A stretch of 51,725 bases of DNA from Folioceros fuciformis. Its lineage: Eukaryota. The first letter of the stretch is position 1; every line of letters starts with the position of its first letter. Positions 5,160 to 42,713 of this stretch are shown here, piece after piece. Under the pieces are notes generated by a model, which did not search any database, was not told the origin of the DNA, and was given only the letters and a program-made list of their open reading frames with translations. The stretch is from contig JBNGIO010005827.1 of the NCBI GenBank assembly GCA_049999805.1, forward strand, positions 62,001-113,725, written 5' to 3'. The translations under genes and the position numbers were made by a program.

Positions 5160-8050
5160 TCAAGTTGTAGAAGAGGGAGTAAGCATAACAAAATCCTTTA
5201 GCCGAAGGGTTGCCACATGTCTATAGTGCTTTGTCTTAGCAAGCCCCTTAGTCAAAACATCGGCAGTGTTGCTGTCTGTATGTATGTACTCAACCTTCAC
5301 AACTCCTCTTTTTGCTACTTCACGTATAAAATGATAATACAACTCTATATGTTTTGTGCGTGCATGAAATCTCGGATTCGAGACCAAGGCAATGGCACTC
5401 ATATTATCGCAGAAAAGCTGGGTTGGTTCTGTCTAAGGTAATTGAATACCATCCAGGAATTGTCTTTCCTACTCCGCTTCCTTGCAAGCATTTGTTAAGG
5501 CTTTATACTTAGCTTCAGTACTCGAAAGCGCTAACGATGCTTGCTTTTTACAGGACCAGTTTACAGATAGTTGAAACAAATAGGCTGAAAGACTCAACAT
5601 AAGGTACAACTTGCATGTCAGCAAGATCTGTAGCAGTTGATGGGGACATATCTACTGTTAACTTTACTCCCACTCTTGAGGGAGTGGATACAGGACGAGC
5701 AGCATCAAGGCCGAAACGTTTCAAGATCTCCTTGAGATATTTGGTTTGATGTAATACAATCATTCCAGCAGGCCTATCTCGAAGAATCTGAGTTCCAAGG
5801 CAAAACTGTAATTCTCCTTGGTCTGTCATTTCAAACTCTACTCGAAGCAAGGCCTTTGATTTATGTAACATAGAGGTACTGTTACTCAACAGCATGGCAT
5901 CATCAACATAAAGAGCAAGAATAACGAAGAAGTCCCCTTCTGCGAAATAGAACACATTGGAGTCTACCCCACACTACACAAAGCCCTTTTTCTTGAGGTA
6001 CTTCATAATACGTTATACCAAGCCCTCGGGCTCTGTTTCAATCCATAGAGGCTTTTCAGGAGCTTACATATTCGTTGGGGCCATTGAGCACTAACAAAAC
6101 CCTCTGGCTGCTCCATGTACAGGACCTCCTGAAGCTCACCATGGAGAAATGCTCTACAAATATCCATATGATGAACCTCGAGATCAAACTATGTAGCCAT
6201 TGCAAGCAAAATCCGAATAAAAGGTGGTTTAACAACAGGAGAAAACGTCTCCCCATAATCCACTCCTGGGATTTGGCTAAAGCCTCTTGGAACCAATCGA
6301 GACTTATAGCGAGCAATCGTGCCATCAGACTTTAGTTTAGTTTTAAACACCCACTTACAGGTGATGGGTTTACGACCAGAAGGTAAGTCCACCAGTTCCC
6401 ATGTATTAATCTTAATTAAGCTATTCTACTCCTCATTTATGCTAATCCTCCAATGGTCACCATTAGGGCCATTGAGTGCTTCACTGTAGGACTGAGGATC
6501 ATGCCTCACTTCTGGAATAGATAAGTTTCCCACATATGCTGATTTTCGAGCGTCAACAGACTCATATGGCACTTCTGTCCATTCTGACCTTGGCCTCCGA
6601 TCTCTAACAGGATAACGTGGAGAGGGAGTTTCAGCAGGAATTTCAGCTCCCACTGAATCTATTGGGTTAGATATATCATCTTCACCACCATCAGATCTGT
6701 CAAACTATGAGCCATCACCAGTCATAATATCTGGGTCGAGGCCTTCATTAGGGCCAACAGATTGCAAATGAGAATCCGTATCCTCATCAACCTGAACATC
6801 TGAAGTTGCCTCCTCACCATCCGAATTTGGATACACATCTGGTAAAGGTGGTTGAACAGCAGGCAATCTAGAGCCAAGTGAAGCAGACATTGGAGCATCA
6901 CCAGAATAGTCAACGATTACCTTACTATTTGAATCATCATGTTCAACGGAGGTAACATCTCCCTCAAGTAATTCATGTGAAGGATTTGATCTAGGAGAGG
7001 TAAGCTCACAAAACGTGACACTTCTTACGAGCACCGCCTTATGAGTTTGGAATTAATCAACTTATAGGCCTTACTTTCCTTCGAGTAACCTAGGAACAAG
7101 TAAGGAACTGCCCTATCATCTAACTTCTTCCTTCTCTTTGCAGGAACATATACAAAGGCAGATGATCCAAATACTCTTAAGTGGTTTATACTGGGCTTAC
7201 GTCCCCAGAACACTTCATAAGGAGTCCTTCCTCGAACAGCGGATGTAAGTAGTTTGTTCATTATATATGTTCTTAAGTAATCGTGCATAAGATAGCATAC
7301 TTCGAGTCATGCCCATAAGTGTCTGGTTCTTACGCTTAGCAACATTGTTTTGCTGTTGTGTGTAGGGTACAACTAGTTGGCGAATGATGCCACACTTTTT
7401 AAATAGCTCATCATATTTGTAGCCAACAAACTCACCTCCATTGTACCAGGTAGCCGGTTTGGCGTTGAACCATGACAATCCAGGATGCAATCTAATCAAA
7501 AGCGTCACTTTTGTGCCGCAATGGGTAAGTCCAAGTATATCTTGAATAATCATGAGTGATTTTTAGATAGTACTCAACACCATCTAGTGACTTAATCTGC
7601 AGTTTTCTAGCTATGTCACCATGTACCAACTCTAGCAAGGATGTTGCCCTTATGGCATCCTTATTTTTGAAAGGTAGTTCTTTTTGTTTAGACATGACAT
7701 AGGAACTGCAAACAGGAAGGGATTTGAAACATGAAGGCAACTTCTCTCTGTAACAATCTAACGCTGACATAAGGTCAAGTTTGGTTTTATTTACATGACC
7801 TTATCTAGCATGCCACAACTTAGCCTGATTCATAGAAGTGAATGCATATGCTCGTTCTAACCTTTTGGATGTAGTGAACAGCTGGTACAAGTTACCAACT
7901 ACTGCAGCTTCTGCTACATGATGGTCAGAATCATTTAAGTTGTAAATGTAACAGTGGTTAGCTTCAAAACGGAAACCATACAACTGACTACTTGTAATTG
8001 CTCGGATGGAGATCAAGTTCTTCGACATGGAGGGCACACAAAGGACATCT
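5160..8050 (-). pseudogene. Copia pol: end of protease region, GAG-pre-integrase, integrase, RT, RNase H (frameshifted)
   Basis: ORF fragments DVLCVPSMSKNLISI, KLWHAR, LLELVHGDI, VPYTQQQNNVAKRKNQTL, TPYEVFWGRKPSINHLRVFGS, KPITCKWVFKTK...RYKSRLV, LYVDDAML, FHARTKHIELYYHFIRE. Confidence 0.93.
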
Positions 8051-8830
8051 TGTCGTGCAAGGCACACAGCAGACGGTCACGCCGGTGATAAGTGTGGCAG
8101 CCTCCAGGCAGGAGCATCAGCTGAATAACACAGCACATACCAAAGAAAGTGGTAAGAAGGTTAGCATCCCGCAAGGTGCTGAGCACTGGGAAAATGTGGA
8201 ACCCCCATCCCCCGACATGGAATATGCTCACACGCAGATTTCTGGACGGTTTTGTTGGAAGAACTTGATTGACTGGCTGCCTATGCCAGGCAGGTTGGAG
8301 TTGGGTAAATCACACCAGGTGTTGCAGCGAGATAGGAAGAACATCAATCCTTACAACTCTTGAGCCCAAATATGGCTGGAACAACAAAAGCAATTGAGTT
8401 TCTAAGATAGCGGCAGGCACTCTCCCTTGGTGCGACTTCGACGACTAGCAGCCTCCATCTCCATCTCCACGGTTTAGCATGGTGGCCATGGCTGACGTCA
8501 GCGATTCTGGTGCGGGCTTGCCTCTTTGAGTCATGATCATTTGGTTGGNNNNNNNNNNNNNNNNNNNNNNNNNNNNNNNNNNNNNNNNNNNNNNNNNNNN
8601 NNNNNNNNNNNNNNNNNNNNNNNNNNNNNNNNNNNNNNNNNNNNNNNNAGCAGGGCAGCTGCAAGCATGCCCTAATCCACGTTCTCTAGTTTTTGGTGTT
8701 TACTAATTACCGTTTAGCATTTGCTAATTGCCAACATTTAAATGGCATTATCCTAAACTAATCCTTATTTAAAAGGATAATTGTTTCACGCTGCTTACTC
8801 AACCTTAAGCTCACCTTTGGTATCGTGACA
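8051..8830 (-). repeat. Gypsy 3' LTR (contains an assembly gap)
   Basis: Its 8809-8830 end (GCTCACCTTTGGTATCGTGACA) matches the remnant at 12438-12459. Its first 130 bp are repeated at 8833-8962. Confidence 0.75.
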
Positions 8831-9105
8831 GCTGTCGAGCGAGGCACATAGGAGACGGTCAAGCTGGTGATAAGTGTGGCAACCTCCAGCCAGGAGCATC
8901 AGCTGAATAACACAGCACATACCAAAGAAAGTGGTAAGAAGGTTAGCATCATGCAAGGTGCTNNNNNNNNNNNNNNNNNNNNNNNNNNNNNNNNNNNNNN
9001 NNNNNNNNNNNNNNNNNNNNNNNNNNNNNNNNNNNNNNNNNNNNNNNNNNNNNNNNNNNNNNCTAGCAAAAAGAAAGGGCTCGTCCACGCCGGGTACTCA
9101 TGCCC

Positions 9106-9270
9106 TCAGCTAGCTGTAGGAATAGCACACTGGGGGCAATACCATAACTGTTCAGGTACCTCAGTCAGCGGTGGATCCAAGCAAAACAAATGGAATCCGC
9201 CATTGCATCCATCACAGAGGAGCATGAGCTCTGCATCATCTACCCTGCGACACACCTGGCAAGAGTAATC
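9106..9270 (-). other. PHD finger (C4HC3) at the C-terminus of the Gypsy integrase
   Basis: CQVCRRVDDAELMLLCDGCNGGFHLFCLDPPLTEVPEQLWYCPQC has canonical PHD spacing. Confidence 0.92.
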
Positions 9271-12142
9271 CTCCGGAGGGACCCAATTGGCTGTGACAAT
9301 GGTGGGGTCCAAGTTGGGTAGGTGGCAGGGGGCACCATTCTTGGTGTGATCTGTAATAGTCCTGCCATCTACCCCCTGTAGCAGCAGCACCCGTTAGGTC
9401 TCACTTCCCTGATCCGCAGCACATGGTGGCTAGTGCTAGTGTCTAGTGTATCACCAGTCTGTCGCTGCAAATACACAAAGCCCCCAAATTGGAACTTCTT
9501 AAGTTTGGGCTTGAAACTTCCGCTCCTGGTATAGGCATACCTAAGAGTGTCCCTGTGTTGTGCGATGTGCAAATTTGCCATAGCCATGGGCATGACTTGC
9601 CTAAACATCGTAGCCCTCTCCCCAATGACTTTGGCCCATACAGCCGGACTGTCTAAGTCCACCACCTGCTGTAGTTGCTTGGTGATGGAGTAGGTGGCAT
9701 TGGCTCACGGCCAAAAAGTAGGAAATACGGTGAGAAGTGTGCCAAAGAGGCATGCTTACTCATCCGGTATCCCATTGTGATGTAGGGCAAGACGAGATCC
9801 CACTCGGTCTCAGGCATTTGTAGACAGAGCTTCCTCAAGCCCTTCTTAAGTGTCTGGACCATTCGCTCTGCAAGACCATCAGCCTAGGGATGGTCTCTGC
9901 TTGTCCTGCGATGATCTATCAATGCTGCATCCAATAGATCTTGGAATTCACCCCTGAATTCTGACCCCTGGTCAGTTAAACATTCTGCACAACTACCGAA
10001 ACGGCTGAGTACATTCTGCAAGAATGCTTGAGAGGTGCTCCTGGACATCTTGTCAGGCAGCGCGACATACTCCACCCACTTGGAGAAATGCTCCATCATG
10101 ACAAGCACGTACACATTCCCACGTGCAGTGCGTGGCAGCTCCCCAATCACGTCACATGACCATCTGAAAAAGAGGCCCATGATAAGCAAAGGATGTAGCT
10201 CTGGGTGCCAGATGGTGAAGGAAGTCTTCACCCTGTCGCATGGCTCGTAGCAGGCAACCCAGTCATGCACTTGACCATGCATCCCATGCCAATAAAAATG
10301 AGGGGCTAGCAGGCTGTAAGTGCGTTTGACTCCAAAATGACCTCATATCATTGTGCACCTTACTAATTAGTGCAGCTCTGTTAGCTAGTGGTGGCACCAA
10401 GCGTTCAACTCCATGTGCCCGCTTCCTAATAACATAACCATCCCGCCAGTAATATGTGGCAGCACGATGCTTGACCTGTTTAGCTATGGTTGGTGGCAAC
10501 GTCGCATCTAGCTGTCCTGTTTGCAAATACTGTAGTGTGTAAGGATCCTCCCAAATGTCCTTAGCCAGTCGGGTGGGTACAAATGTGCTGCCACTGTCGA
10601 CACACACCATGGCCACCAGAGCAGCGACCTTGAATGGTTCATAGGCTCATAATCCTTCCTTGCCTCGGTGATGTCCTGACAGCTGCTGTCTGGATTCCTA
10701 GAGAGAGTGTCTGCATTCTGATGCTTCAGACCTGGTCTGTGAACCACCTGGAAATCATAATCCTGAAGATTCATGGCCCATCGAGCTAGCTTGCCGCTGA
10801 GCTTTGTGTTGGCCATGAGCCACTTGAGGGGCTGGTGGTCCGTCACCAGCGTGAATGCTTGTCCATAGAGATAAGGTCGAAAGTGGCAAACTGCCCAAAC
10901 AGCGGCGAGGCATTCACCTTCATAACTGCTGTAATTGGCCTCCGCCTTATTGTTGCTACGGGATGCATAGGCTATCACTCTCTCATTCCCTTCGTCATCA
11001 TGCTGAGCCAAAAGTGCCCCAAGGCCCAAGCTGCTCCAGTCTGTGTGTAGCACACAAATGGCTGTTTGAAATCAGGTTTGGCCATCACAAGTGCAGAGGT
11101 CAACTTGGATTTCAGGGTATCAAACGCCTCCTGCATAGCCTCAGTCCAAGTCCATACCACGTCCTTCTTGAGCAGGTCGTTGAGAGGCTTGGCAATACGG
11201 CTGAAGTTCTGGATAAATATCCGATAATAATTGCAAAGGCCAAGGAATGCTCACAAGGCAGAGAAGTTAGTGGGCTCCTTGACCTGCAGAATGGCCTGCA
11301 CTTTAGTTGAGTGTGGCATCACGCCGTTGGGAACCACCCTGTGTCCTAAATATGCAACTGTATTCATACCAAATTCACATTTGGCTAGATGGCACTTGAG
11401 TTGAGCCTTCCTTAGGGCAGCCAACCTATTGTGCTACATAGATAACGTCCTTGTGCACAGTGTGGACTTTGATTCACATTTGGAACACTTGGAGGACCAA
11501 AACTATGTCCATAACCCTCTGGAAGGTGACTGGAGCATTCTTGAAGCCGAACGGCATCACGAGCCACTCCCACAATTGCTGTGATCCGTGAAAGGTTGTC
11601 TTTTTGATGTCCTCCGATGCCACTGGCACTTGGTTGAACCCTTGCCTTAGATCCAGTATGGAGAAGTAGGCAGATCTGCCGATGCTGTCAAAGATCTCCT
11701 ACGGTGTAGGCATAGGGTACCTGTCCTGGGCTGTCACGACGTTGATAGGGCGATAATCGCCACACATTCTCTTCTCTGTCCATAGGCCATGGCTATCCTT
11801 CTTGGGTGGCATGACAGTCGCAGCAGCGTAATCAGAACTGGAAGGTTTGATTAGCCCTGCCTCACATAATTCCTTGCACCTGGCATCCACCATCTCCCAC
11901 TCAAATTGACTCAGCCGATACCTTCTGCGATATATGGGCTTCGGGCTTGTGAGGTTGATCCTGAAGGTTGTGACGTTGCAGCGTTTCAACTCCTTCATGG
12001 AGAACGCGAAGCAATCACTGTACTTGAGAATCAATGCCCAAATCTGCCTCTGCTGTTCATTAGTGAGTTGTGGTCCCATGTGCAAGTTGAACGTTTCAGC
12101 AGTGAGTGGCACCTTGGTTGATGGCTCTTGCCTCACATCCAC
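9106..12142 (-). pseudogene. Gypsy pol: RT, RNase H, integrase, PHD (frameshifted)
   Basis: KRMCGDYRPIN...DRYPMP and MPFGFKNAP (RT). HTDWSSLGLGALLAQ, YSSYEGECLA and TDHQPLKWL (RNase H). TDQGSEFRGEF and SPYFLLFGREP (integrase). Confidence 0.92.
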
Positions 12143-12303
12143 CTTGAAGGTCGATGCAGAAAAAACAAAGTGGTGCTAAGCAACATACTCCCCCCTCCTG
12201 CATCGAGCCTGAAAGGTAGGCAAGGATAGCCAGGAAAAGGTAGGTGCACTGCATCTGCTGGACAGGCCATGGCTAAAAGGCCTGCAAGGGTGCCTCTGTT
12301 TAG

Positions 12304-12441
12304 CAGTTGGAAAGCCAAGCATAAACTCACAAGCCAAGTGATGGCGTGCAAGTCCATAGCTCGACCGATAGCAGCACAGCGCTGAGAGACTGTAACCTGC
12401 GGTGCTGCCGTGGCATGTGCTGGACAGCCCATGATCTGCTC
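12304..12441 (-). pseudogene. Putative remnant of a C5 cytosine DNA methyltransferase C-terminus (motifs IX-X) upstream of Gypsy RT
   Basis: EQIMGCPAHATAAPQVTVSQRCAAIGRAMDLHAITWL resembles the DNMT3-like C-terminal pattern ExxxGFPxHYT...RxxxLGxSWxVxVI. Judged by eye over a short alignment. Confidence 0.5.
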
Positions 12442-12459
12442 ACCTTTGGTATAGTGACA

Positions 12460-13783
12460 ATCTTCCAACTGAAGTGTTCCTTCACTCATCAAAGGTATGA
12501 CCACCTGTCCAGTACCTTTACTGCAACTCCTCGAGCATCTCCCACATAAACTAACTGTGGCGAGGTCGTCTTCCAAAACGTCGTGAATAATTGGCGGTTG
12601 TTGCAAACATGTGTTGAGGCACCTGAATCAATAAACCACAGTGATAAAAGCTCATGTGTAGCAGTGGAGCACACAGTCAACTCTGTTGCAGCACTCCTGT
12701 GTGAAGGTAACTTTGAGTCCTTTACAGCAACATGAGCTTGTGATACTTTCAAGTCCTTCTTTGGATCACTGGCTTGCTTCTTAGGACAGTTGCGCTCCCA
12801 ATGTCCAGGAATGCCACACCAGTGGCAAGTGCCTACACGTTTGGCAGTCAAGGGCGAAATGAAGGTAGGTTTCTTTCCTCCTTTATCTGGCCCCTTCCCA
12901 AACGTTTTGCCCTTGGCTGCCAACAACACTCTTTTACCTCGATTTCTGGAACTGGGTCCAGACCTATGATGGCTTTGCTCCTCTTGCAAGAGTGCACCAA
13001 TCACATTGTTGAGGTTGATAGTCGCTGGTTGACCAGCAGCAACAACAATATACGAAGAGTGAAGAGCAGCATTCTGTCCAGAAATGAAGGTTTGGTACGA
13101 CCAGGTGGGAGGCAAACTGCCAAGCAACTGAGCAACACCCTCTACCTCAGACATTGTGCTGCCGAGCATAGCTAGCTGTGCCCTCAGGTACCGGAACTTT
13201 GTTATGTGTGCTCCCAAACTATCCCCTTCCTTCAAACGCAAGCGATAGAATTGATTACGAACACAGACCAGTGTCAAAATACTTTGAACCTAGTAAGTGT
13301 TTTTAAGTTGCTCCCACACAGCAGCAGCTGTGGGCAAGCTTTCAACTTCTGTGACTTAGTTTCACCAAGGCCTGAAAATATGATGGCAAAGGCCACCTTG
13401 TTCCCTTTGACAAACTTGTCTTTAACATCTTGGGGATCAATCGATGCAGGAACAGGAATCGAGCCATTGGCATATTCCCACACATCACGAGCATCTAGGA
13501 ATGCCTTCATCCTAGCTCGCCAGCTTTCATACTTGGTATGTGTACCATCGAAACGGTCTTTTTCCTTGAATTCTCCTCTGAAAGATGCAGTCCGTACTGT
13601 AGTCATTTGAGCAATAAGAACAGGGAGAACAGGTGCAGGAGGAGCAACGATTGAGGAAAATTGAGAAGTTAGAGACTGCAAGAATGACACCTCTGTTTCT
13701 AGGTCTGTGTCAGAATCACTATTTGTCTCTTCAAAGAGAAATGAGAGACCTGACATACAGAAGATATCTATGCAATCATGCAA
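12460..13783 (-). pseudogene. Copia gag (DUF4219/UBN2-like, zinc knuckle) and aspartic protease
   Basis: RFDGTHTKYESWRARMKAFLDARDVW; CHWCGIPGHWERNC (CCHC knuckle); WFIDSGASTHVC (protease). Frameshift near 13275. Confidence 0.92.
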
Positions 13784-14877
13784 ACAATATGTAGACGCAT
13801 CAAATTGTTTGCAGGCTATAAACTAATAAAAAACAGATCAGAATCGAAACGCCACCACAAAACGACATGGAGATTCGAAATGGTAAGTAAGTGAGCCCTA
13901 GAAAAACCAAACGTGCCCTAACTTTCATTTTTAAAGATATGACCGGTTGTATGTTCATGACAAGTGTACACAATCTAAGGGCAATGTCCCTATGTGTACA
14001 TGACAACCAACCGTCAAATGTGCGCAAGGCGCCTATTGGTGGCTGGCTGCAGACAGCACCTGGAGTGGTGAGCTTTGTCCACCTCCGACTGCAGCACGCC
14101 TCCCACCAATCTAATTAGGCAGCCTCTATAGCATCACGCTCACAAATTGGAGGCGACAACGTTGGAAAGTAAAGAGCAACTTGAGGATCCATCACCGAGA
14201 GTCCTGGATCTGAAACTTTGAGAAAACGCGCAATTCTCTGAATAGTCACAGTTTGCACTTGAGAAGTCTCAGATTGCAGACACATATCCTTTGTGAGAGC
14301 GGCAATCATTCGAATTGCTGAATCAATCTGAAGGGTGAGGTCTGTTCTTGTTCAGAACAATAGAATCTGAGTGTCTCGAAGGCAATCACCAATTGTTGAA
14401 CGAGTGACTTTCAAGATCAAATGTTCATCTTCATAGGGTGACAACACTCTGGATGGTCGTCTTGCTAATCCTCGTCTTAAGCTTGCACGCAGATTTGCGC
14501 AACAGGTGCAGAAACGCTGATCCTTTTGTCCACCACGAGATGTCTCCAATTTTCGAGATACTATGGGGATGAAAGCCTTGTGTGAGATCTGTTTGAATAT
14601 TCTCCTTAAAGGATCCTCAAGGTATCTATTCGTAGTAGAGGACAATTCAAGTTTAAATTCCCCTACGCACGGAGCATGATACCTATTTTTAGACCTACAC
14701 GTCATCCCTGCTGCTCAAGTGGGACCAACATAGTCTATTTTGTACTGTGATCCCTTCATAGCTAGGTTCATAAAATNNNNNNNNNNNNNNNNNNNNNNNN
14801 NNNNNNNNNNNNNNNNNNNNNNNNNNNNNNNNNNNNNNNNNNNNNNNNNNNNNNNNNNNNNNNNNNNNNNNNNNNNA

Positions 14878-15790: not shown

Positions 15791-16392
15791 GAGTCAATCT
15801 TCGAGGTCAATCTTCTTGGCAGCCTGCAACATATGAAGTTCCTGCAATGTCCACAACTTTCAAGGTGCCTTGAATGTTTGGTTCATGGAAAGAATGTGGC
15901 TCGTTCTCAAAATTATGCGCATAGGGCCTACACCAAGTTGTGAGATTGGGGAAGCATGGAAGCTGCGAAATCCCAACAATAAAGCTAAAGGCAAGGATAC
16001 TGAGCTTGTGGGACAATTAGGAATGAAGGTTGAAGTCACAGCATAGGCTTGAGACTGACCTACGTCTTCCGGACCCATCGATCTACAACAGCCCTCCAAA
16101 ATCTGGAACGAATACAGGTATAAAAATTTAACCAAGACGACGAGTGCAATGGAAGCAAGAGGGGATTGCAAGCGAATTGAGAAGGAAGCCCCTACACCTC
16201 TACCGGCAAAGGCCCGTAGTCGTAGAGGTTAGAGGCGGTCTCTTCCGATCATTACGGGAGTTCACGTTTTGGGGCGGTCAGAAGTTGCTGGAGGGAAATT
16301 GATGTCAATGGAAAGGAGCCCTTGCTGACTAACCTGACGTATGTTGTTATGATGTTGTTAGACTCTCGTGTTCCGACAACGGTTCCCGAACA

Positions 16393-19300
16393 ATGGTCGC
16401 AGTGTGGGAACCGGATTCATTGTGGACCCAACAAAGTGGTGTGTGTACAGGCGTTCTACGAGGAGCTCCCGCCCACTGCATTGCCCAGGATTCCGCCCCG
16501 GACAAACGACCAAGCCTCCATGTTCAGCAGTGTAAGGAGCGTAGCACTCCCACTCCCGCTGAAATCTGCGGTGGGGACGGATTATCCAGCGATGGTCGTC
16601 GCCAGGAGCAGGAGTTTTTTCTGCATCCTACAGTGTGCTGGGATAACAGACGAGGTAAGAAGACATCCCGTTCGCCTGACTTCCGGCGTAAAGGGTCCGG
16701 CGAGGTGCTCTGGTTGAACAACTCTGCGCAGCCAGCTTGGTTGGATGAGTCTCTGTGTGCTTCGGATATACAGATGGATCACGGTGCCTCTACTCCTAAT
16801 TTGAGCGGTTGCGGCAAGCCTGATGCAGAAAGGCGTGCAGGAGCCGAATTGGCGGCCACGGCCATAGCCGTGAGCACATTATGTCAGCAAGGGAAGCTTA
16901 CTGAGGCCGTCGAAGCCCTGGAATTTCTGGTGCAGACAGACGGTAGTATTTCTCAGTACATGCTTCATACTGTGCTGAAACAGTGCATAGTAGAGAAGGA
17001 TGTGGTTGTTGGGCGACGAGTTCATCATCTAGCTATCAAACTTGGGTACGAGTCAACTACGTACTTGGGGAACCATATCTTGCGCATGTATGCATGTGCA
17101 GGTAGATTACGAGAGGCAATGGATGTGTTCACCAGGGTCGGCAAACCAGACGTGTTCATGTGGGTTTCCATAATCTCTGCACACGCTAAACATGGGAAAC
17201 CTTATGAGGCCGTACAACTGTACCATGACTTCCGTGCCTCAGGTGTGAAGTCTAATTCTCATATCTTTGTAGCTGCCCTTAAAGCTTGCACATGTGCCTC
17301 GGACTTGGAATCTGGCCGGAAAGTTCACTCTGATTTGTTTCTCAGTGGCATTCCTCCCAACTTGTTTGTCGGCAACTGCTTAGTAGGACTGTATGCAAAA
17401 TGTGGTGTATTAGAAGATGCACGCCAGGTTTTTGAGAGCTTGGCCATTAAGGATTCAGTCACTTGGACCACCCTTATATCTGGTTATGCAAATCATGGGT
17501 TTGGTGAAAAGGCTCTTGTTCTGCATGGAGAAATGAAGAAGGGGGGCATGATTTTGGATAACCCTGTTACCTTGTCTTGCCTTTTGAAGGCTTGCGCAAG
17601 CACTCGTGACTTGGAGAAGGGCAGGCAGCTTCACTCACAGATTATGGCTGGAGGACAGCTGGATAGTCTACTGGTAGCGACATCCCTGGTGGACATGTAT
17701 GCAAAATGTGGTGAACTAAGAGATGCACGCGAGGTTTTTGACAGCGTAAGAAAAAAGGATGTGGTGACGTGGACGGCCCTTATAGCTGGCTATGCAAATA
17801 ATGGGCTCGGTCATGAGGCACTTGCTCTGTATGGACAAATGGAGCAAGAGGGTCTGATTATGGGTAATCATATTACTTATTCTTGCCTTCTGAAGGCCTG
17901 TGCAAGTACTGGTGCCCTACAGAAGGGCAGGGAGTTGCACTCCCAGATTGTTGAAAGAGAACAGCTCCACGATGTACGGGTGGGCACCTGCCTTGTGGAC
18001 ATGTATGTAAAATGTAGCGACCTGGATGAGGCACGCAGGGTTTTTGATGGTTTGGCGATGAAGAATGTGGCAACATGGACGGCTCTGATAGCTGGCTATG
18101 CACAGCAAGGGTTCTGTCAAGAGGCACTTGTTCTGTACGGACAAATGGAGCAAGAGGATCTGATTCTGGCTGACTCTGTTACATTTTCTTGCCTTTTGAA
18201 GGCCTGTGCTAGTGCTGGGGCGTTACAAGAGGGCAGGCAGCTGCACTCACTGATTGTGGAAAGAGGGCAGCTGAATCACGCATGGGTGAGCACTTGCCTG
18301 GTAGACATGTACGCAAAATGTGGCGAACTCGAAGATGCTCGCGGGGTTTTCAACAGTTTGGCCACAAAAGATGTGGCGACATGGACAGCCCTGATAGCTG
18401 GGTATGTACAGCAAGGGCTCTGTAAAGAGGCGCTTGTTCTGTATGGTCAGATGGAGGAGGAGGGCTTGATTGTTGCTGACAGTGTAACATTTGCTTGCCT
18501 TCTGAAGGCCTGTTCAAGCGCTGGTGCCTTGCAAGAGGGCAGGCGGCTGCACTCCCAGATCGTTGAGAAAGGTGAGCTGGAGAGAGACATGCAGGTGGGC
18601 ACCTGCCTCGTAGACATGTATGGAAAATGTGGCGAAGTAGAAGAAGCACGCAGGGTCTTTGACAATCTGGCCGCAAAAGATGTGGCGACATGGACAGCCA
18701 TGATAGCTGGATATGCTCGAAAAGGCGTCTTGACAGAGGCGCTGGTTCTATATCGAGAAATGGAAGAGGAGAGCCTGATTCTTGCTGACTCTGTAACTTT
18801 TGCTTGCCTTCTGAACGCCTGTGCCAGTGCTGGTGCCTTACAAGAGGGCAGACAGCTGCACTCACGGATTGTGGGTAGAGTAGAGCTAGAAAGGGACATA
18901 CTGGTGGGCAACTGTCTGGTGGATATGTATGCAAAGTGTGGCAAACTGGAAGATGCACGGAGGGTTTTTGACAGTTTGGTCAGAAAAGATGTGGTGACAT
19001 GGAATGCTCTGATAGCTGGGTACGGTTCCTGTGATGAAGGTTACAATGCAGTAGCCTGTTTTGACGAGATGGTAGTTGCTGGTATTCAGCCTGACGAAGC
19101 TACTTTTACTTGCCTTTTAGCAGCATGTGGCCATGAGGGACTGGTAACGGAAGGTCGGAAGCATTTCGATTCCATGGTTGAGCAGCATGGCATCACACCT
19201 ACGATTCAGCATTACAACTGCCTGGTTGATCTTCTTGCACGTGCAGGCCATTTAGATGACGCAGAAAATACGTTATTCTCTTGTGAGAGGCAAGACGATG

Positions 19301-19905
19301 TTGTAGGGTTGATGTCTTTGCTACATGCCTGCAAAAGTCACGGGGATATAGAAAGGGCAACTCGGTGTTTTGAAACCATTGTGAAACTGGACCCTCAGGG
19401 GGCTTCCGCATATGTGCTCATGGCAAATGTCTACGCAGATGCAGGTATGTGGGCAGATGTAGAAAGGATTGAAAAAAGGAGGACATTAGCAGGAGCTAGG
19501 AAGAAACCTGCAGTGGCAGGCATTGAGGTAGATGAACAGGTCCATACGTTTGTGGTGGGAGAACACAGAGAAGATCTCTCAATGAGGGTCGAGACCTTGA
19601 ATGCACGGCTGAAGGAAGAAGGGGGCCATGTACCACACACCAAGCTGGTGTTGAAGCAACTTCCCGAGAATGAAAAGGAAGATGCGCTTTGCGGCCATGC
19701 TGAGAAGCTAGCGTTGGCGTATGGTCTCTTGAATACTCCAATCGGCACGCCTCTGCTGGTAACGAAGAATCTGCGAATGTGCAGTGACTGCCACACGTCC
19801 ACTGAGATCATGTCTAGGGTTGAGAAGAGAGACATTGTTGTCAGGGATGGATACCGTGTGCATCGATTTGCAGCTGGTTGCTGCAGTTGCAGGCGTCGAC
19901 CATGA
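16393..19905 (+). CDS. PLS-class PPR protein with N-terminal PDF (OSB-like) motif and C-terminal DYW:KP domain ending RRP; putative U-to-C editing factor (copy 1, 1170 aa)
   Basis: Intact ORF with 7 P-L-S triplets including P2-L2-S2, then E1/E2, KKPAVAGIEV, LCGHAEKLA...LRMCSDCH and the terminus CSCRRRP. Confidence 0.95.
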   Translation: MVAVWEPDSLWTQQSGVCTGVLRGAPAHCIAQDSAPDKRPSLHVQQCKERSTPTPAEICGGDGLSSDGRRQEQEFFLHPTVCWDNRRGKKTSRSPDFRRKGSGEVLWLNNSAQPAWLDESLCASDIQMDHGASTPNLSGCGKPDAERRAGAELAATAIAVSTLCQQGKLTEAVEALEFLVQTDGSISQYMLHTVLKQCIVEKDVVVGRRVHHLAIKLGYESTTYLGNHILRMYACAGRLREAMDVFTRVGKPDVFMWVSIISAHAKHGKPYEAVQLYHDFRASGVKSNSHIFVAALKACTCASDLESGRKVHSDLFLSGIPPNLFVGNCLVGLYAKCGVLEDARQVFESLAIKDSVTWTTLISGYANHGFGEKALVLHGEMKKGGMILDNPVTLSCLLKACASTRDLEKGRQLHSQIMAGGQLDSLLVATSLVDMYAKCGELRDAREVFDSVRKKDVVTWTALIAGYANNGLGHEALALYGQMEQEGLIMGNHITYSCLLKACASTGALQKGRELHSQIVEREQLHDVRVGTCLVDMYVKCSDLDEARRVFDGLAMKNVATWTALIAGYAQQGFCQEALVLYGQMEQEDLILADSVTFSCLLKACASAGALQEGRQLHSLIVERGQLNHAWVSTCLVDMYAKCGELEDARGVFNSLATKDVATWTALIAGYVQQGLCKEALVLYGQMEEEGLIVADSVTFACLLKACSSAGALQEGRRLHSQIVEKGELERDMQVGTCLVDMYGKCGEVEEARRVFDNLAAKDVATWTAMIAGYARKGVLTEALVLYREMEEESLILADSVTFACLLNACASAGALQEGRQLHSRIVGRVELERDILVGNCLVDMYAKCGKLEDARRVFDSLVRKDVVTWNALIAGYGSCDEGYNAVACFDEMVVAGIQPDEATFTCLLAACGHEGLVTEGRKHFDSMVEQHGITPTIQHYNCLVDLLARAGHLDDAENTLFSCERQDDVVGLMSLLHACKSHGDIERATRCFETIVKLDPQGASAYVLMANVYADAGMWADVERIEKRRTLAGARKKPAVAGIEVDEQVHTFVVGEHREDLSMRVETLNARLKEEGGHVPHTKLVLKQLPENEKEDALCGHAEKLALAYGLLNTPIGTPLLVTKNLRMCSDCHTSTEIMSRVEKRDIVVRDGYRVHRFAAGCCSCRRRP

Positions 19906-20236
19906 GGACGACGAGGAGCTGGCCATTGTCTTCCAACATCGATTGTTTCTCCTCGTCGACGGTGGGTTAGTTTTGAGCTTCATAGGTCGTAGACAACACC
20001 ACTCGCGGTACGGACGTGATTGCTTAAAGGAGGCTTTTATTCCTGGTTCTGTGCACGGACGCCTCCATCGACTTTGGCACGCCGGAAAATGTGAGTCTTT
20101 GCCATCGGGAAACCGTTCATGTGTACTGGGATTGTAAACAGCGGGTTGTCGGGCATGCACAGTAACTAATCATCAGCTAGCACGGCTCAGGCGGTTGCTT
20201 TGCCTCCCCATTTCCGAAAGCGGAGCAGGGTGCAAT

Positions 20237-23125
20237 ATGGGCACAGCATTGCGGCCAGATTTGGCAGGGTCGCGACCAATGGCTGGGTGTACGGGAATTG
20301 GAGGAGGAGATCCCGCTCTCCTCGCTTTTGGGAGACAGGCAACGCTTAAGGATGATGCCTTGAGCTGCAGTGGTGTCAGGAACCTGGCACTACCGAGGGA
20401 ATCCATGGCTGAGGAAGTATCACCCGCCGACGGTCGTCGGCAAGAGCTGGAGCCCTTGTGTCGACAGTCTGTTCCGGACCCTATCATGTGGTGGGAGAAC
20501 AGACGACGTAAGAAGAGCTCCCGTTCGCCTGACCTACGGCGTAGAGGGTCCGGCGAGGGCCTCTGGTTCGACAACTCTTTAAATCCCGCTTGGGTGGATG
20601 CGCAGCTCGGTGCTCGGGATACGCATGTTGGTCTTGCTGCTTCTCTTTCCAAGTCTGAGCCTCAGAGGCCCGCTGGATCAAAAGTGAGCGTAACAGCTGT
20701 GACCGTGAGCACGTTGTGTCAGCAAGGGAAGCTGAGCGAGGCCGTTGTAGCCCTGGAAGAGCTGGTGGAGACAGACTTTCCTAATCCCCAGGCTTTTTTG
20801 TTTACTGTTCTGAAACTGTGTGCAGCAAAGAAGGATTTGGTTCTGGGACGACGAGTTCATGATCTCACTGTCAAACTTGGGTTTGAGACGAATACATACT
20901 TGGGAAACCACATTCTGCGCATGTATGCCTGTGGAGGCAGGTTACACGAGGCCATGGATGTGTTCACCAAAGTGGGGAAGCGCGATGTTTTCATGTGGGG
21001 CTCCATGATGACTGCATACGCCAAACATGGGAAGCCTAATGAGGCTATACAACTGTACCACGAGATGTGCAGCTCTGGGGTAAAGCCGGATGCTCACATC
21101 TTTGTAGCTGCCCTTCAAGCTTGTGCCCTTGCCATGGACATAGAATCTGGCACAAAAGTGCACTTTGATGTTTTGCAGAGTGGTATTCCTCCTAACTTGT
21201 TTGTTGGCAGCTGCCTGGTAGACATGTATGCGAAATGTGGGGGACTGGAAGCTGCACGCCAGGTGTTTGACAGCTTGGCCACAAAGGATGTGGTGACCTG
21301 GACGGCCTTGATAGCTGGATATGCAAATCATGGGCCCGGTCAAGAGGCTCTTGTATTGTATGAACAAATGGAGCAAGAGGGCCTGATTTTGGATAACCCT
21401 GTGACTTTTGCTTGCCTTCTGAAGGCTTGTGCAAGCGCCAATGACCTACAAACTGGCAGACAGTTGCACTCACAGATTTTGGGAAGAGGAAAGCTACAAA
21501 GTGACATATTGGTCTCCAACTCCTTATTGGACATGTATGCAAAATGTGGCGAACTAGAACTTGCACGCCGGGTATTTGACAGCTTGGACTCAAAGGATGT
21601 AGTGACATGGACAGCCCTTATAGCTGGATATACAAATCATGGGTTCGGTGAAGAGGCGCTTGTTCTGTATGGGCGTATGGAGCAAGAGGGCCTGATCTTG
21701 GGTAACCATGTTACTTTCGCTTGCCTTTTGAAGGCCTGTGCTAGCACACGTGCCTTGTGCAAGGGCAGGGAGCTGCACTCACAGATTGTGGGAAGACGTC
21801 TGTTAGAGAACGTGGTGGTGGCCAACTGCCTGGTGGACATGTATATAAAATGCGGTGAGCTAGAAGATGCACGCAGGGTCTTTGACAGCTTGACCAGAAA
21901 GGATGTGGTGACATGGAATGCCCTGATAGCTGGGTTTGCACAGCAAGGGCTCTGTCATGAGGCGCTTGCCCTATACGGCGAAATGGAGCGGGGCGGGCTT
22001 ATTTTGGCCAATCATATTACTTTTACGTGCCTTTTGAATGCCTGTGCAAGCGCTGGTGCCATGCACGAGGGCAGGCAGCTGCACTTGCAGATTGTGGAAA
22101 GAGGAGAGCTAGAACGTGATATATTGGTGGGGAACTGCCTAGTGGACATGTATGCCAAGTGTGGGGAACTGGAAGAAGCACGCAGGGTTTTCGACAGTTT
22201 ATCTGCCAAGGATGTGGTGACATGGAATGCCCTGATAGATGGGTATGGTACTTCTGATCAAGGTCACAACGCCTTAGCCTGTTTTGAGGAGATGATAGTT
22301 GCTGGTGTAGAGCCTAATGATGCTACTTTCACATGCCTTTTAGTAGCATGCGCTCACACAGGCCTGGTAAATGAGGGTCGGAAACTCTTCGGGTTCATGG
22401 TTGAACACCATGGGATCAAACCCACTCTTCAGCATCACAACTGCATGATTGATCTTCTAGGGCGTGCAGGCCATTTAGATGAGGCAGAGAGCATTCTATT
22501 ATCATGTGACAGCCGGAACAACGTTGTGGGGTTGACGTCTCTCCTGAATTCCTGCAAAAGTCATGGGGATATAGAGAGGGCAACTAGGAGTTTTGAATGT
22601 CTTGTTACACTGGACCCTCAGCGGGCATCCTCGTATGTGCTTTTGGCCAATGTCTATGCAGATGCAGGGAGGTGGACAGATGTAGACAGGATTGAAAGAC
22701 AGAGATTGGCAGCAGGAGCTAGGAAGAAACCGGCTGTGGCGGGCATTGAGGTGAAGGGGCAGGTACATACATTTGTGGTGGGAGAACATAGAGATATCTC
22801 GCCCAAGGTAGACAGCATGAATGTACATCTGAATGAGGAGGGGGGCCATGTACCCCATACAAAGTTGGTGTTGAAGCCATTGTCTGAGAAGGAAAAGGAA
22901 GATGCGCTTTGCGGGCATGCTGAGAAGCTAGCTCTAGCGTACGGTCTCCTAAATACTCCGAGTGGCACTCCTCTGCTGGTAACAAAGAACCTACGAATGT
23001 GCGGTGACTGCCACAGTTCGACTGCAATCATGTCAAAGGTTGAAAAGAGAGAGATTGTGGTGAGGGATGCGTACCGTGTGCATCGGTTTACAGCTGGTTC
23101 TTGCAGCTGTAATGGTCGGCCATGA
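20237..23125 (+). CDS. PDF-PLS PPR-DYW:KP (GRP-type) protein (copy 2, 962 aa from first ATG)
   Basis: The ATG at 20237 aligns with the paralog starts; the track ORF opens at a TTG at 20195. 5 PLS triplets; KKPAVAGIEV, HAEKLA, CGDCH, terminus CSCNGRP. Confidence 0.95.
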   Translation: MGTALRPDLAGSRPMAGCTGIGGGDPALLAFGRQATLKDDALSCSGVRNLALPRESMAEEVSPADGRRQELEPLCRQSVPDPIMWWENRRRKKSSRSPDLRRRGSGEGLWFDNSLNPAWVDAQLGARDTHVGLAASLSKSEPQRPAGSKVSVTAVTVSTLCQQGKLSEAVVALEELVETDFPNPQAFLFTVLKLCAAKKDLVLGRRVHDLTVKLGFETNTYLGNHILRMYACGGRLHEAMDVFTKVGKRDVFMWGSMMTAYAKHGKPNEAIQLYHEMCSSGVKPDAHIFVAALQACALAMDIESGTKVHFDVLQSGIPPNLFVGSCLVDMYAKCGGLEAARQVFDSLATKDVVTWTALIAGYANHGPGQEALVLYEQMEQEGLILDNPVTFACLLKACASANDLQTGRQLHSQILGRGKLQSDILVSNSLLDMYAKCGELELARRVFDSLDSKDVVTWTALIAGYTNHGFGEEALVLYGRMEQEGLILGNHVTFACLLKACASTRALCKGRELHSQIVGRRLLENVVVANCLVDMYIKCGELEDARRVFDSLTRKDVVTWNALIAGFAQQGLCHEALALYGEMERGGLILANHITFTCLLNACASAGAMHEGRQLHLQIVERGELERDILVGNCLVDMYAKCGELEEARRVFDSLSAKDVVTWNALIDGYGTSDQGHNALACFEEMIVAGVEPNDATFTCLLVACAHTGLVNEGRKLFGFMVEHHGIKPTLQHHNCMIDLLGRAGHLDEAESILLSCDSRNNVVGLTSLLNSCKSHGDIERATRSFECLVTLDPQRASSYVLLANVYADAGRWTDVDRIERQRLAAGARKKPAVAGIEVKGQVHTFVVGEHRDISPKVDSMNVHLNEEGGHVPHTKLVLKPLSEKEKEDALCGHAEKLALAYGLLNTPSGTPLLVTKNLRMCGDCHSSTAIMSKVEKREIVVRDAYRVHRFTAGSCSCNGRP

Positions 23126-23365: not shown

Positions 23366-23637
23366 AATAGTACGGTGACAGTTTTCGCAGGCCTAGCTCA
23401 GGGTTTTAGAGGGAAAATATTTTACTTATTATCATTTCTAAAACACCTCGCTTGATATATCTCTAATGAATTACCTTGTAAGATTATAGAAAATTATTAT
23501 TAAGATTTTAAAATATTATTATTGAGATTATAGAAAATTATTATTGATTGTAAGAAATTACCGTTGATTGTAAAAAAATATTGTTTGCTTAGACCATAGA
23601 AAGTGAATGTTTGCTTTTAAATAGGTTATGGTACAAG

Positions 23638-23891
23638 GTACGACTCTATGAAGTAGCCCAGGCAACATGGATACAAAGTGTACGACTCTATCAAGTAGCC
23701 TAGGCAACATAGATACAAAGTATACGACTCTATGAAGTAGCCCAGGCAACATGGATACAAAGTGTACGACTCTANNNNNNNNNNCTCTATGAAGTAGCCC
23801 AGGCAACATGGATACAAAGTGTACGACTCTATCAAGTAGCCTAGGCAACATAGATACAAAGTGTATGACTCTATGAAGTAGCCGGCAAACA
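23638..23891 (+). repeat. 42-bp minisatellite with alternating A/B variants (small gap inside)
   Basis: GTACGACTCTATGAAGTAGCCCAGGCAACATGGATACAAAGT alternates with ...ATCAAGTAGCCTAGGCAACATAG... Confidence 0.9.
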
Positions 23892-25569
23892 TAGTAGACA
23901 ACTTAAGCTTATACAATAGGCATGAAGGGTGGAGCTCAAAGGCCCCATGGGTTGTATGAAAGGGCAATACCCCATGGATTACAACCGGGATATGATACAA
24001 GACTATAGGCCTCTTCCATAGTTCTAGCTTGCACTAAAGATCGCTCCCTTTGCAATTGAAAGTTGACTTTGAAATCCTAGGCAACCAAAAGTTATTGTAA
24101 TGTTATTCCCTTGCTTTCATACCAATTATAGAGGTACCTTTTTCAAGGATACCAAGACTAGTAGTTTGAGACTGTCCTACTTACTTTCTAACACACAATA
24201 CCTTAGTGCTAGGACAACTTATGGTACTACTAAAGACTGATAGTGGGAGCTATAAAGAGTCTACACTAGCAATTATAAGGATAAAGCGGTTGGTTCATAT
24301 GGTCCTGTAGAGATGCCAAAACTCAACAAGCATAGTCTCCTAGGTGCGAACAATCGCTTCCTTAAGCTCTTCGGCCTTTACAACAAATTGGGGACAAGGT
24401 GAGGAGAATGATTGGAGTGGGTACATCACGATGAAGACTAGAGTGAGCCCATCACCCTCCAAGGGCATCACTAGAGGAAAGGCACAATGGAGTAGCAATG
24501 TTACAAGCACATTATACATGCCAATTTTTGTTTGATTTGTAGGACAACTAGCCTCTCATGACCTCTAAGACTTTTGATGTTGGGCTACATAGCCCAATAT
24601 CCAATTGCAATGGGTTTACGATTGCAAGTGGGCCTACTTCAATTCTGAAGGAACGCTCTAGGAGCTACATGGTGAAGGAGAGGAGAGGAGGAGGCAAGGA
24701 GGAGAGGAGAAAGAGAGGTCACACTCTCACAATAGAGTCTATCATACAAGGGAGCTCAAGGGGGTATTTATACCCTCTAGAAGAGCTCCCTAGGAAGCTT
24801 CACAAGAAGCCCACAGGAAGCTGCACAAGAAGTTTCCTAGAGATTAGCTTAAGCTAATCTAAACCAATGATACTTAACTAGACACTAATTTTAGACTAAA
24901 CACATTAGTCTAGGCACATTGGGCTTTAATAACCCTACAAATTCCACATTGGTGGAGTACTGCTACTAATAGTTGCAGCTATCATCACTCAAGCTTGAAC
25001 AACTACCTATGCATAGTGTTCAAATTGATCTTTGTAACTTGACGGTCTAGGATATTAAACAAGTTCATGGGAGATCGAAGATAGAGTAGGAGGGGATTGT
25101 TCCGCAAGACAAAACCAATGAGGGGAAGCGCACAACCAACCTGACCGATTACTTACTATAGGAAGCTTCCGCTCTAATGGAGGGTAGCAATTCAACACGA
25201 AAACGCTCAATGGCTGGCGAATCAAGTTGGTTATTGAGCTGAGCTAGAGGTGGTTCATGATGAGGATTACCCTTGGCCTCATTTGCTGCTAGCGCACCTC
25301 CTACTTTACAAGCATCTTCCTAAATTACATTTGACGTTTGCAACAAGGGACTTGAGGACAATAATGATGTACTAGGTCTATGTTCACAAACTGGACAAGC
25401 TACTAAACTTGAATACCATGGGCAGTGAACATACATACACACAATAGTTTACCTCAACACCTACCTGGTGCAATAAATATAGTCAACCCATGCCATTGGG
25501 CTCCTCACCAAGGATGAGAAGCAACCAAACCAAGCTAGGCAATCCATGCTTGCTGAGAGAGGATCTAAT

Positions 25570-37937: not shown

Positions 37938-38611
37938 GTCACCGGAACCGCTCCGGAAGGCGAGACGCAGTGCGGGCAGGATTCCTAGCTATGTGTTGAT
38001 CACCATCGATAAAAGAGCATCAGCCACACACTCCTCATCGCAAACGCAGCGTGCCCCACACCATCTACCCATCACCAACGGCATCTTCTGGCATCCAACA
38101 AGCACATCGACGTCCTCAAATCTACACAAACCAGCCAAATTGTGACACCGCCTCATCGGCACCTCATGCCCGGCCCCAGACTCATAGCAAAGATCTATCG
38201 TCACCTTCTGCCAAGCAAGTGCCGCTGACGATTTGGACTCTCGGGAAGTTCCCCTGCGGACTCCAGGTTCATATCGACTGGTGCGCGCGTTCATGTCTCG
38301 GACGCACCAAAGCAAGTCGTTGAAAGTCGGAGGAATTCCGTTTCAGCGTTTTAAAACGTGATGGAAAGAAACGTGCGAGTACGAACTATGGCTCCAGGTT
38401 CGAGAAATCCGTTCAGACACACTCTGCCGCTGCCGGACGGCTTGGTTCCATGGTGGTTACGGCCCATGTGCGTGGGACCTCGTGGGTTCGATGGGTTGCC
38501 ACGGCCTTGCAGTGCGACGAGTGGCAGGCCTATACATTCTTCGGGAATTGATCTGGAAAAAGCTTCCGAGAGCGGTGCATGCCACATGACCACACTATGG
38601 CAACTTGTGAC

Positions 38612-41600: not shown

Positions 41601-41812
41601 GGCATGCTGAGAAGCTAGCTCTGGCATATGGTCTCTTGAATACTCCTAGTGGCACACGTCTGTTGGTAACGAAGGATTTACGCATGTGCAGCGACTGCCA
41701 CAGCTCCACTGAAATCATGTCAAGGGTTGAAAAGCGACAAATTGTTGTGAGGGATGGCTACCGTGTGCATCGATTCGCAGCTGGGTGTTGCAGTTGTAAG
41801 GGTCGACCATAA
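38612..41812 (+). CDS. PDF-PLS PPR-DYW:KP (GRP-type) protein (copy 4, ~1066 aa; upstream in-frame ATGs at 38579 and 38597)
   Basis: The MATIWQPD start aligns with the paralogs; 6 PLS triplets; KKPAVAGIEV, HAEKLA, CSDCH, terminus CSCKGRP. Confidence 0.95.
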   Translation: MATIWQPDPSWTQPTGGCAGSRRGARARLTFSRQPLANWSRVTNFALRRRYMAGGALCGDDRRQELERLWREFFLDPTLWWDNRRDKKSSRSPDFIREGSGEVLWLDNSSNPVWVDEQLVAMDRRMGHGASTSKSSCSGKAEPSRRAGYPMGVTPVTVSVLCEQGKLGEAVATLESLAQGGSPVSQSLLYAVLKLCARKKNLAVGRRVHDLIINLGYESNTYLGNHILRMYAGFGELQLAMDVFTRVGKPDAFMWFSIISAHAKHGEPSEAIRLYHSMHRSGVKPDGHVFVAALQACAFAADLESGRKVHSDFLRSGIPSNLFLGSCLVDMYAKCGELKYARQIFDSLPTKNVVTWNSLIAGYANQRLFQEAFVLYGEMEQKGLVLADHVTFACLLKACASSCAIVEGRQLHSQILERGHLENGVVVGNCLVDMYAKCGELEVARIVFESLATKDVVTWTSLVAAYANHGLCQEALLLYGRMEREGLILGNHITFACLLKACASDGALEKGRELHSQIVERGMLDNLLVGNCLVDMYAKCGQLDDARGVFDSLPRKNVATWTALIAGYAQQGLPQEAIGLYGQMEQEGQVLADSVALSCLLRACASAGALQEGRHLHSQILESGQLQSDMLVGNCLIDMYAKCGELEDARRVFNSLASKDVVTWTTLVAGYAQQGLGQEALVLYHRMEQEGLILADAVTFSCLLRVCASIGALQEGRELHSQIVERGQLDSDIQLGTCLVDMYAKCGDLEDARRTFDSLASRDVATWTALISGYGTCDEGHNALACFEEMLVAGVQPDDSTFTCVLVACAHEGLVTEGRKHFTGMEQQGVKPNIQHYNCMIDLLARAGHLDEAENMLLSCESEGNVVGLTSLLFACKSHGDIERATRCFESLVRLDPQGASAYMLMANVYADGGRWTDVEKIERQRLLAGARKKPAVAGIEVANEVHTFVVGEYRDDLSLKVESMNVCLKGVGGHIPQTKLVMKPLSEKQKEDVLCGHAEKLALAYGLLNTPSGTRLLVTKDLRMCSDCHSSTEIMSRVEKRQIVVRDGYRVHRFAAGCCSCKGRP

Positions 41813-42713
41813 AATGAAGATTTAAGCTGTAGACTTACAGCATGCATTCGGTACCAGGGAGACCAACGACCTAGATGTCCCGGACAATGTAGTGCAAGTC
41901 GCGCTCACTTCCAAGGGGCCTGACCGTCCAAGACGGTACACGATCTCCAGTGTTCCGGTGTGGGAGTGATATCATGTCTGTCGAGAATTACTTTGAAGTG
42001 CCTTCTGCCCTGTCCTACCAGACCCACTTGACTGCAGGCCACCCGATGGGCTCAATATATGTTGCCGCACCAGTCGTTTGTTGGCCATAGCCAGTACATT
42101 TTGTCCCAGATCTCTCACCTATATCCGAGAGAGCAGGTCTGAAATCTATGGTGGCCTCGGTATGTCTTGGGTCTTCACTCCGCACTTGATACTCAAAGGT
42201 ATGCCAAATGCCCACGCAACTCAAAAATTGGAGCGAAGTGTATGACAGTGGACGCCGATGTTCTTCTGATGGTCCTTACTTTCTGCCATCCAATGCCGTA
42301 AACAGTAGCCAGCGTGACAGTTTCATCGACTGCTCTGCGCATTTCCACTATCCGCTGTGCTTGATCCCTACCACCCTATCTCACCCGCATATGGAAGACC
42401 ACTCTTTTCGAACAGTCTCACTCTTTCAACAATGAAAACTCCACTGGGTTGGTGGGAAGCTCCTAACAAGAAATCGTTTTGCTGCTGGCGAGGAATTTGG
42501 CAATGGGTGTTTATGGGTTTGCCGTTAAGTCTTGGTCATACACTCTAGCTTTTGTGACTTCCTTACATCACGACAGGCTACGTTCCATGGTTGGCGTTGC
42601 CTCTGGACGTACCCAATGTTGCTGTGCAGTTGGCAGGCATCCTGCTGCGGCCATCCCAACAAGGCCTTCACAGTTAATTCTGATTTTCATGTTCCGACAG
42701 CTGTGGCTGTAAC

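Follow-up and report, generated by a model that had tools for sequence, protein, structure and literature searches.

The window, that is the whole stretch of 51,725 nucleotides analyzed, contains a dead Gypsy retrotransposon copy on the minus strand that spans 12459 to 8051, with the 4-bp target-site duplication ATCT on both sides (12460-12463 on the 5' side, identical to 8047-8050 on the 3' side). The copy is nested in the protease region of a Copia element, also on the minus strand, whose gag-to-protease part lies at 12464-13822 and whose frame resumes past the insertion at 5548-8046; integrase- and RT-like pieces were recognized there by eye, and the one piece scanned had no Pfam match. At its 5' end the Gypsy copy retains a 22-nt repeat stub (12438-12459), as noted earlier, which matches 8830-8809 at 21 of 22 positions. 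The stub carries the TGTC end (the left integrase end) of a repeat here referred to as A1, and its last 6 nt form the microhomology GTGAGC. Adjoining it is the C-terminal remnant (motifs IX-X, about 15% of the domain) of a DNMT3-like C5 methyltransferase (12304-12443), followed by a DNMT-RT linker with a G-run frameshift (12163-12303), a broken reverse transcriptase (11335-11806, located by tblastn with the P0001 domains), RNase H (10757-11053, Pfam and tblastn with the same domains), a frameshifted integrase with H2C2 zinc finger and rve core (9890-10394) and, at the polyprotein C-terminus, a PHD finger (9127-9261) 87% identical to that of an intact copy. All of these lie on the minus strand, and the domains downstream of the remnant are split by frameshifts and stops.

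The 3' side of the copy is compound. Repeat B1 (8833-8962, minus strand) ends in GACA, and its start and the polypurine tract fall inside an N gap (8963-9062); it is followed by a 2-nt spacer, GC (8831-8832), at the centre of a palindromic junction, GACA-GC-TGTC, which we infer to be an internal integrase site. Beyond the spacer are repeat A2 (8214-8830, minus strand, including an N gap at 8549-8648) and, after an A/B join with extra G residues, repeat B2, which ends in GACA at the right integrase end (join and B2, 8051-8213, minus strand). The stretch 8051-8830, previously taken for an LTR, in fact consists of A2 and B2, parts of a split repeat, with another B and the 2-nt spacer before it. 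A self-primer site is predicted within A2 (8435-8449, minus strand); its reverse complement is the primer-binding site found after A1 in the full-length copies, a site deleted here.

The peptide read from the minus strand at 12441-12304, EQIMGCPAHATAAPQVTVSQRCAAIGRAMDLHAITWLVSLCLAFQL, was matched with E=7.7e-13 by a profile of 79 homologous domains, all from outside this genome, whereas the runner-up among the 1594 six-frame pieces of the window reached E=1.4. This result confirms the methyltransferase remnant that the earlier note had proposed at this position. The upstream stretch of the profile match (MSEGTLQLED...) is Copia and stub sequence that is in frame by chance. No Pfam family was found for the remnant piece, and the remnant itself lacks motifs I-VIII.

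Full-length relatives had been expected to encode both a methylation writer and a histone reader, and a sister subfamily does so in a single open frame of 2386 aa (L051:2209-9366). Its polyprotein has the order gag-protease-DNMT-RT-RNaseH-integrase-PHD, with nine Pfam families in order; the methylase sequence that the peptide would require upstream is present, between protease and RT, and the domain is intronless within the Gypsy Pol frame alongside RT, RNase H and integrase. Pfam identified rve and H2C2 in this polyprotein, and no recombinase family at E<=0.1. For the DNMT domain the genome yielded 126 matches (123 of the 190 candidates were scored, and in some cases several matches are pieces of one copy); ten of the matches were near full length without stops and fell into two groups about 40% identical. 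The domain after the integrase is a PHD finger, not a chromodomain as in the Chromovirus Tcn1 or Chlamyvir. Its nearest relatives are KDM5 PHD1 and the fingers of WSTF, BAZ2B and UHRF1, and the residue two before the His was glycine in 46 of 50 homologues and never tryptophan. PHD fingers of this type bind unmodified H3 tails, and the finger of this element, judging from these residues, probably does so as well.

The intact methyltransferase domain contains motifs I (ELFGGICTG), IV (GWECQ), VI (LLENT), VIII (AHRLR), IX and X in unpermuted order, whereas the host DRMs (L056 and L057) have the permuted order. Its best PDB sequence match was DNMT3A (E=1.4e-10), with HhaI at E of about 1, and its PF00145 score was weak (21.3 bits in the polyprotein and 25.3 for the domain alone, against a cut-off of 22). 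A model of the domain from a 70-row alignment had a pLDDT of 96 (36 for the single-sequence fold), and all listed Foldseek matches to it were DNMT3A/B/C, the top one with E=4e-18; on this model the domain has the full DNMT3 fold. In comparisons between subfamilies the domain had a pN of 0.19-0.28 at a saturated pS of 0.76-0.83 (10 of 11 comparisons), and the preceding linker a pN of 0.42-0.51 (6 of 7). One close pair gave a ratio of 0.34, dS being saturated elsewhere so that an exact ratio is unobtainable. These substitution patterns indicate that the DNMT domain is under purifying selection. The PF00145 loci read in this genome comprised two DRM and two CMT/MET-like genes, with no multi-exon host DNMT3 recognized (no DNMT3 query was used); the protein-cluster atlas returned generic PF00145 clusters, mostly phage, and was uninformative on kinship. 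The catalytic region of both host DRM genes (L056:2270-5041, 924 aa; L057:3270-5540, 757 aa) lies in one long open frame.

The most likely role of the methylase, on our analysis, is action in cis on new cDNA: it would be packaged with RT and methylate the new cDNA, and a fresh copy would arrive pre-marked. The same has been proposed for SymbioDIRS-Dnmt3 (PMC5890265). Within the window family, C-to-T change at CG and at CHG exceeded that at CHH about 6-fold. CG depletion (0.36-0.58) was like that of the neighbouring Copia (0.40-0.44). The C-to-T pattern is accounted for by host MET1/CMT, and self-methylation and host methylation cannot be told apart from the mutation spectrum; a CG/CHG-high, CHH-low pattern is what has been reported for host methylation in Anthoceros agrestis (PMC10952607). 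That the methylation signature is no more than this host pattern would also suit a DNMT3-like domain kept for a non-catalytic job (binding of cDNA or RNA, or a structural spacer) or for action on RNA, with no DNA self-methylation. Two further observations favour such a role: motif IV, PC in DNMT3, is EC in this genome and in most homologues (EC in 54 of 80 domains, PC in 17 by pattern, SC in 4, unmatched in 5), and the Klebsormidium enzyme gave no methylation in yeast, a result its authors call inconclusive (PMC5890265). Against it, the catalytic Cys and the motif VI Glu are each kept in 79 of the 80 domains and the two motif VIII Arg in 75, the SAM-binding glycines hardly vary among chlorophytes and streptophytes, PC is retained in four Marchantia proteins, and the modelled fold is that of a full DNMT3. 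We consider a non-catalytic role unlikely, though it has a real share of the probability, and favour a methylase that acts on the element's own cDNA.

The repeats of the element depart from those of a canonical LTR retrotransposon. A complete element on C6246 consists of A1 (470 nt), coding region, G-tract, B1 (111 nt), GC, A2 and B2, with the target-site duplication ATCT, and this A-coding-B-GC-A-B layout is common to all three families of this genome in which it was read (F1, F2 and F3). Features of canonical LTR elements are present (DDE integrase, TG/CA termini, target-site duplication, polypurine tract, primer site); the canonical layout itself, with a complete direct TG...CA LTR on each side, was rejected since A stands alone on the 5' side in 20 of 21 5' ends, B being absent after A1. 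At 14 of 15 places the B/A spacer was exactly 2 nt (12 GC, 2 AC), and the remaining place had an 8-nt deletion. The polypurine tract lies directly 5' of B1. In 18 of the 19 F1 and F2 5' ends the stretch directly after A1 is the complement of a site lying 205-265 nt within A, with two compensatory changes, the remaining end being without that part of A; in F3 a 14-nt primer match lies just downstream of a TATA-like box. The A/B join is variable: one base may be missing, the join may be exact, G or A may be added (the A being the base with which the primer site begins), a run of G may be inserted, and three joins are deletions. All nine F1 joins are different; among eleven F2 joins four lack a base, three have an added G, two are exact and two are otherwise different. 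In F3, 15 of 17 joins begin alike, one of them with a G-run insert, and two have an added A.

Comparison of the two B repeats gave no fixed B1-versus-B2 differences. The B1-B2 distance within an element was not below the between-element distance in 8 of 9 elements, and private variants common to B1 and B2 were found in only 2 of 9, both being low-power tests. Of 21 5' ends, one was of a mirror-like form (A-B-GC-A-coding-B), located at the end of a contig and spanning an N gap, and perfect 4-bp duplications were present in 15 of 17 F2 and F3 solo-type A-B loci (counts that leave out L158); mirror, A-coding-B and solo A-B forms may be faked by short-read collapse. A metagenome locus scan for the algal repeat layout returned a single weak 16-residue match. 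Several individual loci also deserve mention. L176 (G000:C5845:82200-84590) is a possible mirror-image insertion, A-[gap]-B-GC-A-primer site, and may be an assembly artefact. The A-coding-B forms L138 with L121 (flank GGGG) and L140 with L122 (TCGT) have their ends on different contigs with a common 4-bp flank, and were read as one-repeat circle or B1-B2 recombination products. F3 (G000:C6046, C6226 and C25; L174-L203) has repeats that are 99-100% identical, and many of its loci are solo-type A-B with 4-bp duplications; either the family expanded in a burst very recently or full-length copies have been collapsed.

From this layout we propose that the element probably replicates through a self-primed cDNA with B-GC-A ends, cleavage at an internal palindrome and joining of the cDNA ends. 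The RNA would start inside A and prime itself, Tf1-style; self-priming is known in Tf1/Sushi and Tcn1 (PMC6317226). With strand transfer on A, and with the plus strand primed at the polypurine tract, a linear cDNA, B-GC-A...B-GC-A, would result: under ordinary LTR reverse transcription, self-priming just after A1 and a plus-strand start ahead of B1 dictate B-GC-A at both ends. The physical cDNA ends would then not be TG/CA. Since the TG/CA ends would be internal in the cDNA, insertion would require cleavage of the palindrome by integrase and joining of the cDNA termini, with a variable A/B join as the outcome. The integrase site would be the internal palindrome CA-GC-TG, a staggered cut after CA on both strands giving two processed ends; end-joining of the cDNA termini, in a 2-LTR circle or during repair after strand transfer, would create the A2/B2 join, and opening at the left site would produce A-coding-B-GC-A-B. 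Retroviral integrase can cleave palindromic 2-LTR junctions (PMC1905944). Three observations count against the internal cut: random site choice predicts about half mirror insertions and one of 21 was seen; in the youngest family 15 of 17 A/B joins begin alike, as inheritance would also give; and homogenization of B1 and B2 is visible in only 2 of 9 elements. The one-sided layout would be explained if methylation of the CG beside the terminal CA (CGACA in all three families) picked which internal site is cut, a suggestion that we regard as a long shot.

The same repeat order is found in DIRS-type elements (PMC5890265), and the element could instead replicate in the manner of PAT/Ngaro-type DIRS, with RNA running from A1 into B2, the B/A junction templating circle closure and the A/B join inherited through RNA. 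The A/B join forms partly follow subfamilies, most F3 joins (15 of 17) begin alike, and B1/B2 homogenization is undemonstrable in young copies. However, the primer site abuts the end of A1 and the polypurine tract abuts the start of B1, fixing LTR-type cDNA ends, the A/B joins hold primer- and tract-like remnants, and the absence of fixed B1-versus-B2 differences, the DDE integrase without a tyrosine recombinase and the 4-bp target-site duplications all speak against this route, which we judge improbable. Membership in DIRS/PAT/Ngaro was rejected on the Pfam results given above for the L051 polyprotein.

The truncation of the methyltransferase in the window copy was examined through its relatives. 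The earlier note had ascribed the junction to a microhomology deletion of gag, protease and most of the methylase domain; the deletion stands, while the microhomology common to repeat A and the donor is GTGAGC, 6 nt and not the 4 of GAGC. When 12460-11700 was used to query the genome, 37 matches were obtained (36 candidates scored); the first 17 query bases were matched by the window copy alone, and the closest copies (93-94% identical) start at base 18. Upstream of the junction, methyltransferase sequence was found in all seven close copies inspected; in five of them motifs I-X follow protease sequence, every one of these copies being interrupted by stops or frameshifts. By this comparison the deletion took gag, protease and about 85% of the methyltransferase domain. 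The loss, which occurred by microhomology-mediated deletion, is at least 3.0 kb relative to the copy on C6396, a minimum given that this copy carries an internal deletion of its own, and about 5.4 kb relative to the intact sister subfamily. The window copy would be inert, because promoter, primer and primer-binding site were deleted. A chance peptide match, an assembly artefact at the stub-DNMT junction or DNA from an algal contaminant is very improbable: the remnant piece has no Pfam match and the junction is known from a draft assembly with N gaps alone, but the profile E-value and the upstream continuation into the full domain in the 93-94% identical copies led us to reject chance, the matching target-site duplications within a single Copia frame argue against an artefact, contamination was rejected on copies on scaffolds of 386-530 kb and named land-plant homologues, and mis-assembly of the window junction alone would leave the family conclusions untouched. 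Several other copies likewise lie within Copia elements (L051, L060, L064), and a window-family copy at L059:240-550 (G000:C6396) has 3' repeats that are partly inverted and deleted, near plant telomere-like repeats.

The host is hornwort-like, as the placement of the element in an embryophyte had assumed: of five DYW domains in the window, three terminate in GRP, a form that has been described from hornworts (PMC9478123). Named homologues came from Marchantia polymorpha, Calypogeia fissa, Closterium, Haematococcus, Chlamydomonas eustigma, Monoraphidium and Tetrabaena, with no seed-plant, fern or Klebsormidium name among the listed homologues; most matches carry no species name, so this range is a lower bound. 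By domain order, 99 proteins were divided into PR-DNMT-RT (28), RH-DNMT-INT (64) and unclassed (7). All ten named chlorophyte proteins have RH-DNMT-INT, compared with none of the 21 named streptophyte proteins, 17 of which have PR-DNMT-RT. The two orders were separated in an unrooted RT-RH tree (SH-aLRT 100; 46 rows with both domains complete) and in an unrooted DNMT tree (support 92; 59 rows, 29 environmental rows having been randomly dropped). These trees are compatible with one old capture together with a relocation of the methylase, or with the domain having been captured twice from a related donor; the distribution suggests that the domain was captured before land plants arose, and perhaps before chlorophytes and streptophytes diverged. 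The gene models P0065, P0066, P0069, P0093 and P0131 of Marchantia and Calypogeia, annotated as hypothetical protein or methyltransferase, are pieces of the retrotransposon.

Fusion of a Dnmt3-related domain to Gypsy Pol is known from KnitGypsy-Dnmt3 of the alga Klebsormidium nitens (PMC5890265), which has the same intronless domain in the Pol frame, the same DIRS-like A-coding-B-A-B repeat order and the same purifying selection on the domain. Because both the fusion and the repeat order recur there, the kind of element is already known; the earlier reading of a DNMT retrotransposon was sound as to element and architecture and overlooked the split repeats that link it to KnitGypsy-Dnmt3. Common descent of the two is likely, their likeness resting on the published description. 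In contrast to the algal element, presented as acquired in the K. nitens lineage (PMC5890265), the present one resides in an embryophyte and has homologues in two liverworts, Closterium and chlorophytes. The main text of PMC5890265 contains neither 'PHD' nor 'embryophyte', and no mechanism for the repeat order was seen there; its Fig. 4c may show a PHD. What appears to be new here is the land-plant and chlorophyte range, the PHD finger and the proposed integration route. No report of these was found in the literature searched, subscription papers, theses and Repbase being outside its scope, and two later papers say only 'streptophytes', which could include land plants.

Other elements share single traits. 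Among transposable elements, IS3/IS30 circle junctions are a case in which a DDE enzyme acts on abutted, palindromic ends that a short spacer separates. Cleavage of the retroviral 2-LTR junction (PMC1905944) likewise has a DDE enzyme acting on ends of this kind, whereas the junction described here is a permanent, templated part of the repeats and apparently the normal route, not a side reaction. Tf1/Sushi and the plant Tcn1 chromoviruses are likewise Gypsy elements in non-seed plants with self-priming, as proposed here, in place of tRNA priming (PMC6317226), with a chromodomain where the present element has a PHD finger in addition to methylase and split repeats. SymbioDIRS-Dnmt3, whose enzyme methylates CG de novo in yeast, also combines Dnmt3 in Pol with A-coding-B-A-B repeats (PMC5890265), but has a tyrosine recombinase in contrast to the DDE integrase, polypurine tract and 4-bp duplication found here. 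EpiLTRs (bioRxiv 10.64898/2026.05.21.726589) are likewise LTR retrotransposons pairing a DNA methylation writer with a histone reader, in their case DAM, a DNMT4-sister enzyme and a chromodomain (Cymbomonas, Euglena) as opposed to DNMT3-like and PHD; the available text of that preprint mentions neither 'hornwort' nor 'land plant'. Gypsy-7a_cRei and REM1 of Chlamydomonas likewise carry a PHD accessory domain in a green-lineage Gypsy, with no methyltransferase mentioned in the text available (PMC9940879).

DNMT-carrying Gypsy elements have so far come from one charophyte alga, their enzyme never demonstrated active. A hornwort-type genome with very young copies and the PC-bearing Marchantia copies offer tractable land plants with methylome data, in which one can now ask why a transposon should bear the silencing enzyme of its host. 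The split repeats would presumably escape standard LTR finders, and the integration via an internal palindrome that they imply is experimentally testable. In its fullest form our interpretation is one old Gypsy lineage, spread over green plants that include chlorophytes, hornworts and liverworts, in which the methylase has moved once within Pol, with a permuted LTR opened at an internal palindrome, and an active DNMT3 with a reader of unmodified H3K4 mimicking the animal DNMT3-ADD pair; taken as a whole this is attractive and tentative, and may well fail in one of its parts.

The remainder of the window includes at least five intronless KP-type PPR-DYW genes (16333-19905, 20138-23125, 35364-37988 on the minus strand, 38552-41812 and 42700-45307), with the C-termini RRP, GRP, GRP, GRP and GTS, respectively. 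These are candidate U-to-C editing factors, and the last gene is broken. A tandem array with a 42-nt unit, broken by a short N gap, lies at 23602-23925.
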